A stretch of 64,000 nucleotides of DNA from Candidatus Nanopelagicales bacterium (GCA_044375955.1 JBILLS010000003.1:2471-66470), one strand, 5' to 3'; counted from the stretch's first letter, positions 55,095 through 61,175 are shown. The notes: generated by a model from the sequence alone, not told the origin. Made by a program: numbers and translations.

Positions 55095-56885
55095 ATGCAT
55101 CCACGCCTGCGCCGTCCCTTCATCGTGGCCCTGGCCGCGACCGTCGCCCTTGTCGGCATGGCCCTTCCCGCCTCGGGAGCGCCCGACACCAACTTGGCGA
55201 GCGGCGGTAAGCCACCGGGCGGATGGATCGTGGATCCGTCGATCTACGACTCGATCTTCGGGGGAGTCGGGGCCGGCGCGCCCCAGGGCACCGTGGTCGC
55301 CGACTCCGGCTTCCGGCCCTACCCCCACGGCTTCCCGGTGCCCAACTGGGGATCGGCCCGGGACTTCGCCACGAACGCCCTCGTCTACGGGGTGCCGACT
55401 CGGGTCACCCTCGACCAACTCAACGATGACGAGTACCAGGGCCCGGCGCCCTTGAACTCCCTCGCCTTGCGCCGCAGCCTCGGCGACGGCGTCTGCCGCG
55501 ACGCCAGGGCCATCAACCCGAGGACGGGTGAGTGCGACCTGATCCTGGGAGCCGGACTGCTCGCCCAGATGATCGAAAGTTCAGGGCAGGGCGGCCACTG
55601 CTTCGGTCTCGCCGCCGCTGCCGCCGCCCTCTACAACGGGCAGCTCCCGGCGAATCAGGTCGGGGCTTCCGGCCTGGGGATCAATGCCGCGAACCCGATG
55701 GGCGATCGGGCGACCCAGACCATCACCCGCCTGTTCGGGGCGCAGTACCTCGTGCCCGATGTGCTGCCCCTCGCCATCGCCGGGCAGTCACCGACTCAGC
55801 TCGTCCAGACACTCATGAAGACGCTGCCTAGCGGCACCGTCCCGTTCATCCTGACGCTGTACGGCGAGGTCGGCGGCCACGGCATCACTCCCTACGCGGT
55901 CCTGGATCGCGGGAATGGCCTGTACGACATCGCCGTATACGACAACAACTTCCCATTCCGCGCGCTGGCCGTCACCGTCGACACGAAGACCGACAGCTTC
56001 GTCTACACCTCTGCCGTGAACCCGAACTCCCCCTCCTACACCTGGAGCACGGCGAATAAGTCCGCCATCGCCCTCGTCCCACTCGATGATGTGCTGGCGC
56101 AGCAGGAATGCCCGGTGTGCCGCGGCAAGAACCAGGGGACGATGCTTGCGTTCAGCTCGCTGTCATCGGCGAACGCGGAAGTGATCAATATCGCCCTGCT
56201 CGACCTCGAAGGCCAGCCCCTCGCGAGTGACCTCTACCGGACCCTGGACACACTCAATCCGCCGACGGAAAACCAGCAGAGCGCGCCGGTGATCATCGTG
56301 GATCCGGGCGTGGAGTTCTTCGTCGCGATCCAGACGGGGCAGCTCGCCGCACCCCAGCCGATGGAGGTCTACGCGCTGAGCAACGGCGCATCGTCGTACC
56401 TGCTGCTCGATGAGCTCCCCTCCAACGGCACCATCTTGTTCGGAGTCGGCGAGAAGGATGCGATCTTCCAGTCCAGCAAGGCCTCGAGTCCGCGCATTCA
56501 GCAGCTCTACGACGGCCGAACCACGAGCTTCGACGTCAACGGCCATCCGCTCCTGCTGCCCAAGGAGGTCGCTGCAACCCAGGACTGGAACCGGGCCACC
56601 AAGCAGGTGCGGTACAGCAGCAACGCGAAGCGCACCCTCTCCTGGAACGTCCAGGTGACCGGCTCCCGCGTCAGCGGCGAAGCGGGCTGGGTCGCCCTGG
56701 CCGTCCCTGTGCCAGCGGCCGCCGAGATCCTGGTCGATTACTCCCGGGCATCCGCCACGACGGCCCCGCGGGCCTGGGTGGTGGCCAAGGATGGGAGCCG
56801 CACCCCGGTGCGCATGCAGCGCGTGACGGAGAGCCTCATCGAGCAGTACCGCGACGAGCTCTACGCCGTTCAGGGCCCGTCCTGA
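55095..56885 (+). CDS. Secreted protein with a candidate papain-like Cys/His/Asp-Asn core (paralog 1)
   Basis: Signal peptide. Motifs GQGGHCFGLA (Cys codon 55599-55601), GGHGITPYAV and IAVYDNNFP are shared with 59167-61065. Confidence 0.7.
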   Translation: MHPRLRRPFIVALAATVALVGMALPASGAPDTNLASGGKPPGGWIVDPSIYDSIFGGVGAGAPQGTVVADSGFRPYPHGFPVPNWGSARDFATNALVYGVPTRVTLDQLNDDEYQGPAPLNSLALRRSLGDGVCRDARAINPRTGECDLILGAGLLAQMIESSGQGGHCFGLAAAAAALYNGQLPANQVGASGLGINAANPMGDRATQTITRLFGAQYLVPDVLPLAIAGQSPTQLVQTLMKTLPSGTVPFILTLYGEVGGHGITPYAVLDRGNGLYDIAVYDNNFPFRALAVTVDTKTDSFVYTSAVNPNSPSYTWSTANKSAIALVPLDDVLAQQECPVCRGKNQGTMLAFSSLSSANAEVINIALLDLEGQPLASDLYRTLDTLNPPTENQQSAPVIIVDPGVEFFVAIQTGQLAAPQPMEVYALSNGASSYLLLDELPSNGTILFGVGEKDAIFQSSKASSPRIQQLYDGRTTSFDVNGHPLLLPKEVAATQDWNRATKQVRYSSNAKRTLSWNVQVTGSRVSGEAGWVALAVPVPAAAEILVDYSRASATTAPRAWVVAKDGSRTPVRMQRVTESLIEQYRDELYAVQGPS

Positions 56886-56921
56886 CTCCGCCCCACCTAC
56901 CCCACGCCGCGAGACGAGGGG

Positions 56922-57137
56922 TCACCGCTCAACTCTCGACCGCCGCTCACGCCACCAGGTGAATAAAGCGAAGAGAGCGGTCATGATCACAGATGTGATC
57001 ACCGCCTGGCGGATGAACGCGGCATCGATGGCATCGCCGAAGCCCCATTCCAGCAGGAACTGGATCAGCACCACCAGAATGAAGAAGACGACAACGGAAG
57101 CGAGTTGGAGCCAGCCGCGACTCCTGTTGTCCGCCAT
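56922..57137 (-). CDS. Small 2-TM membrane protein
   Basis: Two hydrophobic helices flanked by Arg-rich ends. Start at MADNRSRGW. No family recognised. Confidence 0.45.
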   Translation of the reverse strand: MADNRSRGWLQLASVVVFFILVVLIQFLLEWGFGDAIDAAFIRQAVITSVIMTALFALFTWWRERRSRVER

Positions 57138-57320
57138 GCCCCTGAACCTATGGTCTATCGGCACTCAAGGCAAGGAGAGGGCGCGCGAACGTCAACTCGG
57201 CCAGTGAACGGCCTCAACCGCGCGACAGATGACCCCTCACCCACCTGTTCATCAAGAAATCGGATGGTCGGCAGTGCGACCCCGCCCCTGACCACCGGAT
57301 GTGCGCTGTAGGTTCTCAGC

Positions 57321-58415
57321 ATGAACCTAGGAGCTGTGCATGAGCGGCATGAGGTAGCGACCACTATTCGGGGCGCACGTGCCTGGCGAATTAGGTATTC
57401 GTCGCTCGATTCGTCTGGTGTTGCAACCGAATCAACGGGGTTGGTCATCGCGCCCAGCGCTGGAGGCACCAACCTGCCGGTAGTGACGTGGGCCCATGGA
57501 ACCACCGGGTTGGGTGATGCGGCCTGTCCATCCGCGCAACCAGACCCGGTGCGTGAACTCACCGTGTACTTCTCAGCCGAGTCAACGCAGTCCATCGATT
57601 ACGGTGTTCCGGGACTTCAGTCCTTTATCGACGATGGCTGGATCGTGTGTGCAACTGACTACCAAGGCCTTGGAACGCCTGGGATGCACCACTACACAGT
57701 AAACCGCACCAACGCGATCGATGCAGTGAGCATCGTGCACGCGGCTCGAGCCATGGACATAGGTGCGGGAACTCAGTTCGGCTGCATGGGCTGGTCACAA
57801 GGTGGCGGTGCTGCAGCGGCCGCAGCGGAACTGGATCCAGACGTGTACGGGGAACTCAGCCTCGTCGGCGTAGTGCCGATCTCCCCCGGTGTCGGCAAGA
57901 TCGCAATGGCAAATCCTGTGGGTCCGGCACAGGCCATGAGTGACACATCCGTGCCCCCGGATTCGCATCTCGTGATGCTCCTGTTCGGCACTGCTGCGGA
58001 GAATCCCAGTCTGCAACTTTCCGATGTATTCACACCTCTCGGTGTGAGCATTATCGAAGCAGCGTGGAACACCCAGCCCGTTCATCACCTCAATGACACG
58101 ATTGCGCGGCTCTTTCGACTCAAGGGTGCAATCATGCAGATCAAGCATGGTGCGCTGCCGGCATGGCTGGCAGCGATTGAGGCGGGGTCTGCTGCACAGA
58201 AGAAGCCGGTATGCCCCATTCTCGTGTGCATTGACACCTTCGATGGCGGAACCGTTGTACCCGTGGCCTGGCAGACCAACTACGTGACGGCCATGCAGAC
58301 ACTGGGCGGTGCGGTCTCCACGAAGGAGTACCCGAATGATGACCACTTCAGTCTGCCCACGAGTTGCATTGCTGATGCAACCGCCTGGTTGAAGCCCCTA
58401 TTCACGACGAACTGA
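57321..58415 (+). CDS. Secretory-lipase (LIP) family alpha/beta hydrolase
   Basis: GWSQGG nucleophile elbow and the ATDYQGLGTPG region typical of the LIP family. No obvious signal peptide with this start. Confidence 0.75.
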   Translation: MNLGAVHERHEVATTIRGARAWRIRYSSLDSSGVATESTGLVIAPSAGGTNLPVVTWAHGTTGLGDAACPSAQPDPVRELTVYFSAESTQSIDYGVPGLQSFIDDGWIVCATDYQGLGTPGMHHYTVNRTNAIDAVSIVHAARAMDIGAGTQFGCMGWSQGGGAAAAAAELDPDVYGELSLVGVVPISPGVGKIAMANPVGPAQAMSDTSVPPDSHLVMLLFGTAAENPSLQLSDVFTPLGVSIIEAAWNTQPVHHLNDTIARLFRLKGAIMQIKHGALPAWLAAIEAGSAAQKKPVCPILVCIDTFDGGTVVPVAWQTNYVTAMQTLGGAVSTKEYPNDDHFSLPTSCIADATAWLKPLFTTN

Positions 58416-58538
58416 CCGTGGCTCCAGGCGTCTCGTGACCTTCACCCGCGGATGCCTGGGATTCTGGGCGCCACGGATGCGTTGCAGCACCGCCACCAGG
58501 CCGGATACCTCGTCAACCATCGGTGTCGAGCAGAACAC

Positions 58539-59009
58539 CTACAGCATGGGCAAAGCAATGCCCTTGGTTGCCCTCTGGAAGAGGCAGACCTCTGATGCCT
58601 TGCCCTTGCCAACCTTGGGGAGCTGCTCGAGGCAGGTCGGGAAGTAGACGGAGCCGTCCTTGCCGATCGTGCCCTTCATGATGTTCGCGTTGCTGGCGTC
58701 GGCCAGCCCGCCCTTGCCGTTGACAAGGAGGGATGCCTTCATGTCCTTCTGTGTCATCCCGGCCTTGACCCTCTTCTCGGCATTCGCGCCGGCGGGGCGG
58801 TAGCGGACCACGACGTTGTAGGCGTTGGTCGGATCGCTGTCGGCCGCGGTCACGACGAGGATGTAGCCGGGGTCACCGTTCTTAAGCGAGGAGGAAGCCC
58901 AGGTGCCCGCCAGATTGGGAGCGGCCGTGGCTGCGGGCGCCACACCGAGCACGAGGGCTCCGATGGCGACCCCGGCGAGTGCGGTCAGGCGAGAGCGGGT
59001 CAGGCGCAC
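58539..59009 (-). CDS. Secreted hypothetical protein (Lys-rich)
   Basis: Signal peptide (LTALAGVAIGALVLGVAPAATAAP). No family recognised. Confidence 0.55.
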   Translation of the reverse strand: MRLTRSRLTALAGVAIGALVLGVAPAATAAPNLAGTWASSSLKNGDPGYILVVTAADSDPTNAYNVVVRYRPAGANAEKRVKAGMTQKDMKASLLVNGKGGLADASNANIMKGTIGKDGSVYFPTCLEQLPKVGKGKASEVCLFQRATKGIALPML

Positions 59010-59166
59010 GGCGTCCTCATTTCTGTGATGGCCCAGGTTGGGTGTGTTCGGAGAGTAACGCTCCTCGCCGGCGCGTACGAGAGCGCACGCGAACCGACAC
59101 CTACAGACACATTGCCGCCGGCAAGATCTTCACGCGAGTGACGAGGCTGATGCCGTAACCGCGCGA

Positions 59167-61065
59167 CTACTCCTGCCCAGAGTCATCGACCGGATCAGCC
59201 GCGGGATCGTCAGCACCAGGATCATCAGCCCCAGGATCGTCGGCACCAGGATCGTCAGCCCCAGGATCATCAGCCCCAGGATCGTCGGCACCAGGATCGT
59301 CTCCCGTGGGATCAGTGGCGTCGTCCGGCCCGTTCCCGTCGCCGGAGTCGGTGCCCGCGCCAGAGTCGTCCTGGCCGGGGTCATCGTTCGCACCGGAGTC
59401 GGCACCTTCGTCGGCGCCGACTTCGTCGTCGCTCAGGTTGGAGATGTCGGGAAGCTCGTCGATGGTCTCCTCCTCGGCGACCTCCTCGGTGACGTAGAAC
59501 TCACCGGTCTCCTCGTCGAACTCGGCCACGGCGTCGATCACCTCGCCGCTCTCGGTCTCGGCGTCGATCGCGAACTCGCCGACCACGTTGCCGTCCTCGT
59601 CGACGTACTCGATGTCGGAGACGCCGTTGACGATCTTGTAGACGTTCATGCCAAGGCCATCAGGAAGATCAAAGTCGACGCTGCTGAGGCCGTTGGCGAC
59701 GTTCACGTCAGCCTGAGAGCCCGGAGCCGCGACGAGCCCGACCTCGTTCGGGCTGCCGGAGGACACCTCGACTCCTCCGGCCTCGGATGCGACGTAGCGC
59801 GCGGTGATGCGCGGACTGCCCACCGAGTCGATCGACAGCGTGACGGGCGTCTCCTCCGACATGGGTGCCATGCCGGGGAAGATGCCCTGCTTGGTTTTCG
59901 CGGTGAACGACTTCACGATCGAGCGGTCGATCGTCATCACCGTTCCCTTGCCGGCCAGGACGGAGCCCAGCACCGGACGCGAGATCACGCCCTCAGGCAG
60001 AACTGCTGCGGGATCGGTCGTGTCGTAGGTCTGGCCATCGATTGTGAGCTCCACACCCACGCGAGCCTCGGGATCCGGTGACGTGGCCATCAGGTAGGAC
60101 ATCCTCGGCATGCTCTTGTTGCGCTTGCCGGAGTCGTCGAACGGAGCAGCAGTGGGCAGCGCGCGGCTCGCCATGGGAGTGAGCTCGATCGTGCCGATGC
60201 CACCCTCCCAGCCGCCGGTCGGCGCGTCGGGGTTCGTCGAGCCCATCGCGTAGCTCCATCGCTCCTGCACGGGGTCGATGTAGATCCGCTGGACGGTGCC
60301 GGGGAAGTTGTTGTCATAGACGGAGATCGCGATGCGATCCCCCTCCAGCGTCACGGCGAACGGGGTGATCCCATGGCCGCCCTGCGGACCGTAGATCCCC
60401 ATCGTGTAGCCCTTGCCGGTCTGGAGCCCGACCGCGAGTTCCGCCGCGATCTCAGAGGGTTGGTAACTGTGGAAGGCCGTGTAGGCCTCCTGCACGGGGG
60501 CAAGCATCTGCGTGGCCCACCACATGTCGATCGCCTGTCGGACGTCCGGATCCGCGAACGTCAGCTCGTAGGTCGATGCGGCGTTGGGGTCGAGATCCGC
60601 AAGCAGCGCGTCCCCCCGGAACAGGCGGGCCGCCATGACCGCCATACCCTCGCAGTGGCCACCGGCCATCGCCTCGTTCACCTGCTCCGCCCACTCCCGG
60701 GCCGCCGGGTAGAGCACGCACCCGTTCGCCGTCTTCTTCGCGCAGACGGCCTTGACCCCGAACAGCGCCACCATGCCGGTGGCGTCGAGTTCACCCTTCT
60801 CAGCCCAGTTCGCGAAGTTGAAGCCGTGGACGGTCGGATCGAACCCGTCGTAGGAGCAGGTCGACGGATCCTGGCCTTCGCACTCGGGCAGCGGGTAGCT
60901 CTCCTGCACGGGCTGGGCCGCCTGCTGCCCGAGCCCGAGCTCGGACACTTCTGGCGTGGGTGTCGCGGAGGGATCACCAGCCTCCGAGCCGCACGCCGCC
61001 AGGACGCAGGCGAGCACCACAATGGGCACGAGCGCGGTCATTCGGCGAGACGTCCGAGCGAGCAT
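59167..61065 (-). CDS. Lipoprotein with a candidate papain-like Cys/His/Asp-Asn core and an acidic repeat tail (paralog 2)
   Basis: Lipobox VLAACGS. Motifs AGGHCEGMA (Cys codon 60652-60654), GGHGITPFAV, ISVYDNNFP. C-terminal (DDPGA)n tail. Confidence 0.7.
   Translation of the reverse strand: MLARTSRRMTALVPIVVLACVLAACGSEAGDPSATPTPEVSELGLGQQAAQPVQESYPLPECEGQDPSTCSYDGFDPTVHGFNFANWAEKGELDATGMVALFGVKAVCAKKTANGCVLYPAAREWAEQVNEAMAGGHCEGMAVMAARLFRGDALLADLDPNAASTYELTFADPDVRQAIDMWWATQMLAPVQEAYTAFHSYQPSEIAAELAVGLQTGKGYTMGIYGPQGGHGITPFAVTLEGDRIAISVYDNNFPGTVQRIYIDPVQERWSYAMGSTNPDAPTGGWEGGIGTIELTPMASRALPTAAPFDDSGKRNKSMPRMSYLMATSPDPEARVGVELTIDGQTYDTTDPAAVLPEGVISRPVLGSVLAGKGTVMTIDRSIVKSFTAKTKQGIFPGMAPMSEETPVTLSIDSVGSPRITARYVASEAGGVEVSSGSPNEVGLVAAPGSQADVNVANGLSSVDFDLPDGLGMNVYKIVNGVSDIEYVDEDGNVVGEFAIDAETESGEVIDAVAEFDEETGEFYVTEEVAEEETIDELPDISNLSDDEVGADEGADSGANDDPGQDDSGAGTDSGDGNGPDDATDPTGDDPGADDPGADDPGADDPGADDPGADDPGADDPAADPVDDSGQE
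59200..59305 (-). repeat. 15-bp in-frame tandem repeat (about 7 copies) encoding (DDPGA)n
   Basis: The unit caggatcRtcRgcMc repeats head to tail and encodes DDPGADDPGADDPGA... at the C-terminus of the 59167-61065 protein. Confidence 0.85.
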
Positions 61066-61175
61066 GAGGTCCCAACTTTCCCGGGTAGTGATCGACCCGC
61101 CCGACGATGTGATCACTTTGCCATAGACGGCGATTCCGCAGGAACTTTCCCCTCAAGGACTCCGTGCATGGCCCA

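Follow-up and report, generated by a model that had tools for sequence, protein, structure and literature searches.

Two genes, which we call A and B, lie close together in 64 kb of DNA from an uncultured freshwater actinobacterium, a member of the Nanopelagicales with a genome of 2.08 Mb; "the window" below means this whole stretch of 64,000 nucleotides. The N-terminal domain that the two encoded proteins have in common, judged from sequence comparison and a predicted structure, probably represents a large unnamed family of exported papain-like (clan CA) thiol hydrolases, with endopeptidase action on extracellular or surface proteins as the most likely activity. The domain is a new family inside a known superfamily and not a new kind of biology, and the finding leaves the accepted working of papain-like enzymes unchanged. 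The features of A and B on which the argument depends are listed here by window position, with residue numbers referring to the encoded protein.

55095 to 56885, plus strand: gene A, 596 amino acids (aa), with a Sec signal, a putative papain-like domain and a beta-rich C-terminal region (open reading frame (ORF), translation and orthologues of 46-99% identity)
55095 to 55181, plus strand: probable Sec signal peptide of A, residues 1-29, ending in ALPASG and followed by A
55290 to 56138, plus strand: conserved catalytic-type domain of A, about residues 66-348 (alignments and profile matches)
55344 to 55346, plus strand: A Asn84 of the F-x-N-W motif
55494 to 55535, plus strand: A Cys134 and Cys147
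55596 to 55601, plus strand: A His168-Cys169 of GGHCFG, with Cys169 as the proposed nucleophile
55878 to 55880, plus strand: A His262 of GGHGITP, proposed as general base
55941 to 55949, plus strand: A Asp283-Asn284-Asn285 of VYDNN
56109 to 56120, plus strand: A C339-P-V-C342 motif, directly after the domain
56139 to 56882, plus strand: C-terminal all-beta region of A, unrelated to the C-terminus of B
59167 to 61065, minus strand: gene B, 632 aa, with a lipoprotein signal, a putative papain-like domain, a middle region and an acidic tail (ATG at 61065)
60991 to 61002, minus strand: lipobox of B, L22-A23-A24-C25 (LAAC)
60166 to 60858, minus strand: conserved catalytic-type domain of B, about residues 70-300 (alignments and structural model)
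60652 to 60657, minus strand: B His137-Cys138 of GGHCEG
60373 to 60375, minus strand: B His231 of GGHGITP
60307 to 60315, minus strand: B Asp251-Asn252-Asn253 of VYDNN
59170 to 59480, minus strand: Asp/Glu/Gly-rich tail of B ending in (DDPGA)6, outside the enzyme domain (sequence)

The similarity between A and B goes far beyond chance. Over some 266 aa, BLASTP aligned residues 72-330 of A with residues 74-298 of B at 27% identity (E = 1e-17), and five blocks occur in identical order in both proteins: GF(R/D)P..HGF..(P/A)NW, a Cys...Cys pair, GGHC(F/E)G(L/M)A, GGHGITP(Y/F)AV and (A/S)VYDNNFP. A preliminary description of this DNA, made from the sequence alone, had reported these blocks, along with two exported ORFs, one with a Sec signal and one with a lipobox, and had placed the conserved Cys codons at 55599-55601 and 60652-60654; the blocks, the ORFs, the signals (by eye) and the exact codon positions were all as it had given them. 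It had also taken the two proteins to be paralogues. This proved right for the N-terminal domain of about 270 aa, to which the common region is confined, but did not extend to the C-terminal halves, between which no relation was detectable (hhalign of the subfamily alignments downstream of the domain, probability 0.7%). The A domain carries an insertion of about 30 residues that is found neither in B nor in most of the family. The C-terminal region of A was modelled by AlphaFold2 entirely as strands, with a predicted local distance difference test score (pLDDT) of mostly 86-95, and Foldseek gave no significant fold match for it. As the explanation of these observations we favour two anciently diverged copies of one exported enzyme domain.

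We next consider conservation within the domain, for which 372 domain sequences, many of them just 25-35% identical to B, were aligned to the profile (residues are given in A numbering). Asp283 and Asn285 of the VYDNN block were present in all 372 sequences, and either could be the third member of a catalytic triad. Cys169 and His262 were each found in 370, so that the Cys/His/Asp-Asn set proposed in the preliminary description is close to invariant. His168, adjacent to the proposed nucleophile, was present in 338 sequences and replaced by Arg in 30. Asn84 occurred in every one of the 367 sequences aligned at its position, the remaining five having a gap there, and is a candidate oxyanion-hole or structural residue. 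Cys134 (371 of 372) and Cys147 (369 of 372) probably form a structural disulfide. A second pair of cysteines, in the CP(F/V)C motif that directly follows the domain, is shared by about 80% of a diverse set of representatives (111 of 137 for the first Cys, 109 of 137 for the second) and has been lost as a pair in the B subfamily; this motif may have a disulfide or redox role. The codons of the corresponding His-Cys, His and Asp-Asn-Asn residues of B were checked.

The rare exceptions to this conservation were themselves informative. In one sequence (P0215), His168, Cys169, His262 and Asn284 are changed together; in another (P0362), Cys134 and Cys147 are both Val; and in a third (P0332), Cys169 is replaced by Ser. 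Such joint losses are the pattern expected of an active site and of a disulfide pair. Distant relatives of 900-1,100 aa retain GG(H/D)CFG, GH(V/A)V and YD(N/P)N, one of them with the variants GGGDCFG and YDPNW, in which the Asp and the second Asn are kept. Because the distant relatives keep YD(N/P)N, the comparison points to Asp283 and Asn285, and not Asn284, as the essential pair.

A structural model of the B domain agrees with a papain-like core. In the published description of this core, the catalytic Cys stands at the N-terminus of a helix; after the helix comes an antiparallel sheet, and the His and a polar residue are supplied by its second and third strands (PMC10318531). We modelled residues 50-335 of B with AlphaFold2 from 135 diverse sequences (<62% mutual identity), and obtained a mean pLDDT of 92.5 and a predicted template modelling score (pTM) of 0.90. 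By DSSP, Cys138 is the first residue (N-cap) of helix 138-150, and His231 stands near the start of a long strand, 229-241, which is beta-2; a tight turn then leads into strand 244-250, which is followed directly by Asp251-Asn252-Asn253. The strands of the model are 220-226, 229-241, 244-250, 259-264 and 269-272, with their pairing inferred from the secondary-structure string. This order fits the core sheet of four to five antiparallel strands with the His on the second and a polar residue on or after the third, and the match to the published core supports the papain-fold reading.

Searching the PDB with the B model by Foldseek pointed the same way. Ranks 1-7 and 10 were taken by IdeS/Mac-1/IdeC and by the related C-terminal protease domain of Treponema denticola TDE0362 (best E = 5.4e-3, probability up to 0.98), and about 30 of the top 50 matches were papain-like enzymes. 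Further matches included interpain, SpeB, staphopain, cathepsins S, B and L, falcipain, a CHAP domain, UfSP and the C39 domain of PCAT1. A search against a viral library returned nothing informative.

Several observations weigh against reading the domain as a papain-like endopeptidase. The Foldseek matches are weak: none reached E ≤ 1e-3, template modelling (TM) scores were 0.21-0.33, and the aligned cores span about 110 columns. The first AlphaFold2 model, of full-length A from 27 sequences, had a pLDDT of 50-66 over residues 80-220, falling below 50 at residues 164-167, just before Cys169. We discarded that model for the fold search, in which it returned meaningless porin and lyase matches from the PDB; because it was poor, the fold argument is based on the B-domain model. 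In that model, moreover, the Cys/His arrangement is read from the secondary-structure string and not from coordinates. Amidases, transglutaminases and acyltransferases use the same fold and triad, and a free-thiol enzyme is prone to oxidation in oxic lake water. Finally, gene neighbourhoods in the family, described below, are not conserved and contain nothing that points to a substrate.

The weakness of the fold matches also bears on whether the domain is an enzyme at all. It is known from sequence and a model, and could in principle be a non-catalytic binding or structural module in which the conserved Cys, His and Asp would help the protein to fold or would bind a metal. We regard this as highly improbable, since proteins that are otherwise just 25-35% identical keep these residues almost without exception at the catalytic positions of a papain core, and since the residues disappear jointly in the rare exceptions, as active-site residues do. 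The preliminary description had proposed an uncharacterised papain-fold hydrolase with a Cys/His/Asp-Asn core; the near-invariant residues, the papain-like model, the lack of a named family and the clan CA peptidases that head the list of fold matches all support this, although those matches have the modest E values and TM scores given above.

In the mechanism that we propose, Cys169 (Cys138 in B) would be the nucleophile, placed at the helix dipole, and His262 (His231 in B) would be the general base, oriented by Asp283 or Asn285 (Asp251 or Asn253 in B). The Cys134-Cys147 disulfide would stabilise the domain. The enzyme would hydrolyse peptide or amide bonds outside the cell, and its substrate would be bound by variable modules on the C- or N-terminal side of the domain: the differing C-terminal regions in A and B, and beta-propeller, Ig-like or TPR modules in distant relatives. 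We favour an endopeptidase because the nearest solved structures are secreted endopeptidases, namely C66 (IdeS/Mac-1), C10 (SpeB and interpain), C47 (staphopain) and C1 (cathepsins). A bolder version of this proposal is that the domain is a new cysteine-peptidase family meriting its own MEROPS number, and a major overlooked extracellular protease of the abundant freshwater Nanopelagicales bacterioplankton and of Chloroflexota, whose activity in oxic water is protected or gated by thiol-disulfide chemistry through Cys134-Cys147 and the CP(F/V)C motif; we consider it unlikely that all of this holds.

Of the known systems, C66 peptidases and the T. denticola TDE0362 domain (T-Mac) gave the best structural matches (2avw, 2au1, 1y08, 8a47, 9hb2, 9mdo and 9arc). 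C66 enzymes are secreted, single-domain papain-like endopeptidases with the same Cys ... His ... Asp order as the A/B domain. The triad of IdeS is Cys94/His262/Asp284, with a second Asp two residues further on, and its spacing from His to acid resembles that from His262 to Asp283/Asn285 here. However, there is no detectable sequence similarity between the two, and the structural match has a TM score of about 0.25 over roughly 110 columns. Unlike C66, the A/B domain has a conserved disulfide, its nucleophile motif is GGHC, a YDNN motif is present, and the Cys helix is separated from the sheet by three additional helices. The A/B family also differs in where it occurs, its bearers being free-living bacteria of fresh water, soil and other environments and not host-associated pathogens.

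The secreted bacterial papain-like endopeptidases of families C10 (SpeB and interpain A) and C47 (staphopain) were matched through 3bb7, which had the top TM score (0.33), 6uqd, 2uzj, 6ukd, 1y4h and 1pxv. In SpeB, as in the A/B domain, the His is preceded by two Gly residues and lies where a strand begins. The A/B domain differs from C10 in its invariant Asp and Asn after strand 3, in giving no sequence match and in having no evident pro-domain; C10 works as a Cys-His dyad (PMC10318531). Family C1 (papain and the cathepsins) is alike in its defining core topology and in the order Cys, His, Asn, and cathepsins S, B and L and falcipain were among the top 50 Foldseek matches, but with probabilities of just 0.1-0.25. 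The A/B domain also lacks the Gln-x5-Cys oxyanion motif of C1, its invariant Asn84 lying 85 residues upstream of the Cys.

The preliminary description had compared the domain with papain-like, C39/BtrH-like and transglutaminase-like enzymes. All of these belong to the same superfamily and have the same order of catalytic residues, but the nearest solved structures were those of C66 and C10: the C39 domain (PCAT1, 7t55) appeared at rank 37 with a probability of 0.09, and no BtrH, transglutaminase or acetyltransferase structure was among the top 50. This result bears on a different reading of the same putative Cys-His-Asp triad, in which the domain would be a transferase (a transglutaminase, protein-glutaminase, or acyl- or aminoacyl-transferase) that cross-links or modifies surface proteins. 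The order Cys, His, Asp is indeed common to the transglutaminase-like and N-acetyltransferase families of the superfamily (PMC10318531), and hydrolysis and transfer are indistinguishable by sequence alone. With no such structure among the matches, and no match to the Pfam Transglut_core model (PF01841) or a related one at E ≤ 1, we think a transferase very doubtful and keep to the hydrolase.

Sequence models placed the domain in no named family, in agreement with the preliminary description, which had been unable to assign either protein. Neither Pfam-A nor NCBIfam matched the conserved domain of A or B (E ≤ 0.1), and Pfam gave nothing relevant to the domain for 27 relatives (E ≤ 1), 10 diverse representatives and two distant relatives. 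PDB sequences gave no relevant match to single sequences or to 27- and 135-sequence profiles (E ≤ 10). Specifically, there was no match to the C66 Mac-1/IdeS model PF09028 or to PF01841 (A and B at E ≤ 0.1; the 27 members at E ≤ 1), and no match of PDB sequence to IdeS; no match to the C10 streptopain model PF01640, either by Pfam on A, B and the 27 members or by the PDB sequence profiles; and no Pfam match to C39/BtrH_N-like models (A, B and the 27 members). As the sequence-model test failed for every named family tested, we have filed the domain in none of them. Every homologue with a source name is annotated as "hypothetical protein", including RefSeq WP_220595985.1 from the cultured Oscillochloris sp. 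ZM17-4, and our literature search found no paper on this secreted domain family.

The family is nonetheless large. A 13-sequence domain profile, searched against 1.84 billion representatives (50% identity clusters), matched 2,574 sequences at E ≤ 1e-3, of which 1,518 also passed E ≤ 1e-10 and 787 passed E ≤ 1e-30, and at least 490 loci in species-representative genomes encode a relative. Named members come from Nanopelagicales, other Actinomycetes and Chloroflexota (Anaerolineae, and Chloroflexia including Oscillochloris, Roseiflexaceae and Herpetosiphonaceae). Occurrence is patchy, with members in 35 of the 121 genomes sampled from the window's order, in 4 of 301 from its phylum and in 8 of 201 from Chloroflexota. 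If the family were named and its substrate found, a gap in the annotation of thousands of proteins would be closed and the papain-like superfamily would gain a family; members are also present in bacteria that are among the most abundant in lakes and whose use of dissolved protein is poorly known.

Most of these proteins are probably exported. Of the 83 family ORFs that we examined, nearly all have a signal peptide or a lipobox at the N-terminus, and a lipobox-like motif is present in about one member in three (134 of 372). The N-terminus of A is typical of a Sec signal (MHPRLRRPFIVALAATVALVGMALPASG, with cleavage before A), as read by eye from the sequence and not from a predictor, and its orthologues have the same N-terminal pattern; the lipobox of B was likewise read by eye. 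The start of B can be placed in more than one position: upstream, the frame stays open as far as a GTG at 61116, and the start chosen by gene callers is the Met at 61041, which gives 624 aa. The explanation that we favour for these signals is that A would be released via Sec, and B would be lipid-anchored at the cell surface.

That B and about a third of the family would be surface-held lipoproteins also suits a cell-wall or envelope amidase or endopeptidase with NlpC/P60- or CHAP-like chemistry, acting on the cell's own or a neighbour's peptidoglycan or surface polymer instead of free proteins, and a phage CHAP domain (rank 8) and a type VI secretion effector domain (rank 17) were among the Foldseek matches. 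However, the CHAP match, to a nuclear magnetic resonance structure, had a probability of 0.15, as against 0.9-0.98 for the IdeS-type peptidases. Pfam gave no NlpC/P60 or CHAP match, and no LysM, SH3, peptidoglycan-binding or other wall-binding domain in the 39 members scanned; the accessory modules found in relatives are instead BNR/Sortilin beta-propeller, Ig-like and TPR. The patchy distribution within the order and phylum is also unfit for a core enzyme of wall growth. A wall-directed enzyme is therefore rather unlikely, and an endopeptidase acting on extracellular or surface proteins remains our preferred reading.

In two of the distant relatives of 900-1,100 aa (L092, 1933-4680, minus strand; L091, 1880-5140, plus strand), the domain follows either a BNR/Sortilin-Vps10 beta-propeller with an Ig-like module or about 500 aa without a Pfam match. 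The acidic tail of B varies between close relatives: in public metagenome proteins at least 90% identical to B, the copy number of the (DDPGA)n repeat (window 59200-59305) is 4, 6, 7, 9 or 10, and protein lengths are 609-644 aa. Orthologues of A with 61-81% identity are encoded at seven loci (L009, L010, L012, L014, L020, L023 and L028) of public metagenome-assembled genomes (MAGs) that are recorded as "Bifidobacterium breve", "Rubrivirga sp." or "Rubricoccaceae". In the hit list these genomes lie next to MAGs of lake Nanopelagicales and Actinomycetes, and their taxon labels are probably wrong.

The genome that contains the window has two full copies of the family and one probable remnant. On contig C34 (locus L006, 1480-2064, minus strand), a 194-aa ORF ends in a clear B-type segment (IDPNQETWSYAAETTEPSAPTGGWEGGTGTINLTP) without the Cys, His and YDNN parts; because these parts are missing, the ORF is probably the remnant of a third paralogue. 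A 628-aa ORF beside a B-type gene (L003) was also considered as a third paralogue and ruled out, being unrelated.

Within the window, A and B are convergent and, as the preliminary description had stated, face each other across a membrane-like, a LIP-like and a Lys-rich ORF. These three simply lie beside A and B here, and none of them accompanies the family at the other loci examined.

56922 to 59009, both strands: the three ORFs between A and B
56922 to 57164, minus strand: 80-aa membrane-like ORF (ORF listing)
57321 to 58415, plus strand: LIP-like ORF (Pfam LIP, PF03583, E = 4.3e-10)
58539 to 59009, minus strand: Lys-rich ORF with a signal peptide (ORF listing)

The second of these had been described as a LIP-family lipase. 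The Pfam match is above the cutoff (39.8 bits against 23), but it covers only positions 9-105 of the 286-position LIP model, and no signal peptide was found in any upstream frame. Instead of a secreted lipase, this ORF may encode an alpha/beta hydrolase that stays in the cytoplasm, or it may be truncated. Rfam and promoter/terminator scans of window positions 54-62.5 kb found nothing.

The preliminary description had further suggested that this arrangement is an envelope or host-surface remodelling module. In 80 related loci we identified the ORFs and grouped the neighbouring genes into clusters. No neighbour gene was conserved family-wide, and the 80-aa ORF, the LIP-like ORF, the Lys-rich ORF and the S-adenosylmethionine (SAM) methyltransferase gene upstream of B had no relative beside any family member in these loci. 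At the locus with 89% identity to A (L090, 3332-9791), A and B once more lie near each other, this time in divergent orientation, and what separates them is different: a small ORF and genes for a CBAH-type Ntn hydrolase and a Tricorn/PD40 beta-propeller protein. No B was present within 7 kb of A in the relatives of 79% and 64% identity, and in a relative assembled as one contig the A-type and B-type copies are about 800 kb apart. Because the neighbours are not conserved, the module has no support; the interval between A and B is at most a variable slot for hydrolase genes that differ by strain.

Two possible links between the window and other loci were rejected. When the SAM methyltransferase upstream of B was compared with the methyltransferase upstream of Chloroflexota members, no similarity was seen at E ≤ 0.01. 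A 266-aa gene that lies upstream of the A-type gene in six relatives gave no significant match in the 553-nucleotide gap upstream of A, where a surviving copy might have lain.

Some gene arrangements do recur within single clades. At four A-type loci, a conserved gene of about 626 aa lies directly upstream, which in L025 is the trypsin-domain gene seen in L001; this association is clade-limited. In five Anaerolineae loci (L071, L072, L079, L085 and L086), the lipoprotein family gene lies between two genes for fused permease-ATPase ATP-binding cassette (ABC) exporters, all on the same strand and separated by gaps of a few to about 70 nucleotides. This arrangement is a clade-limited operon.

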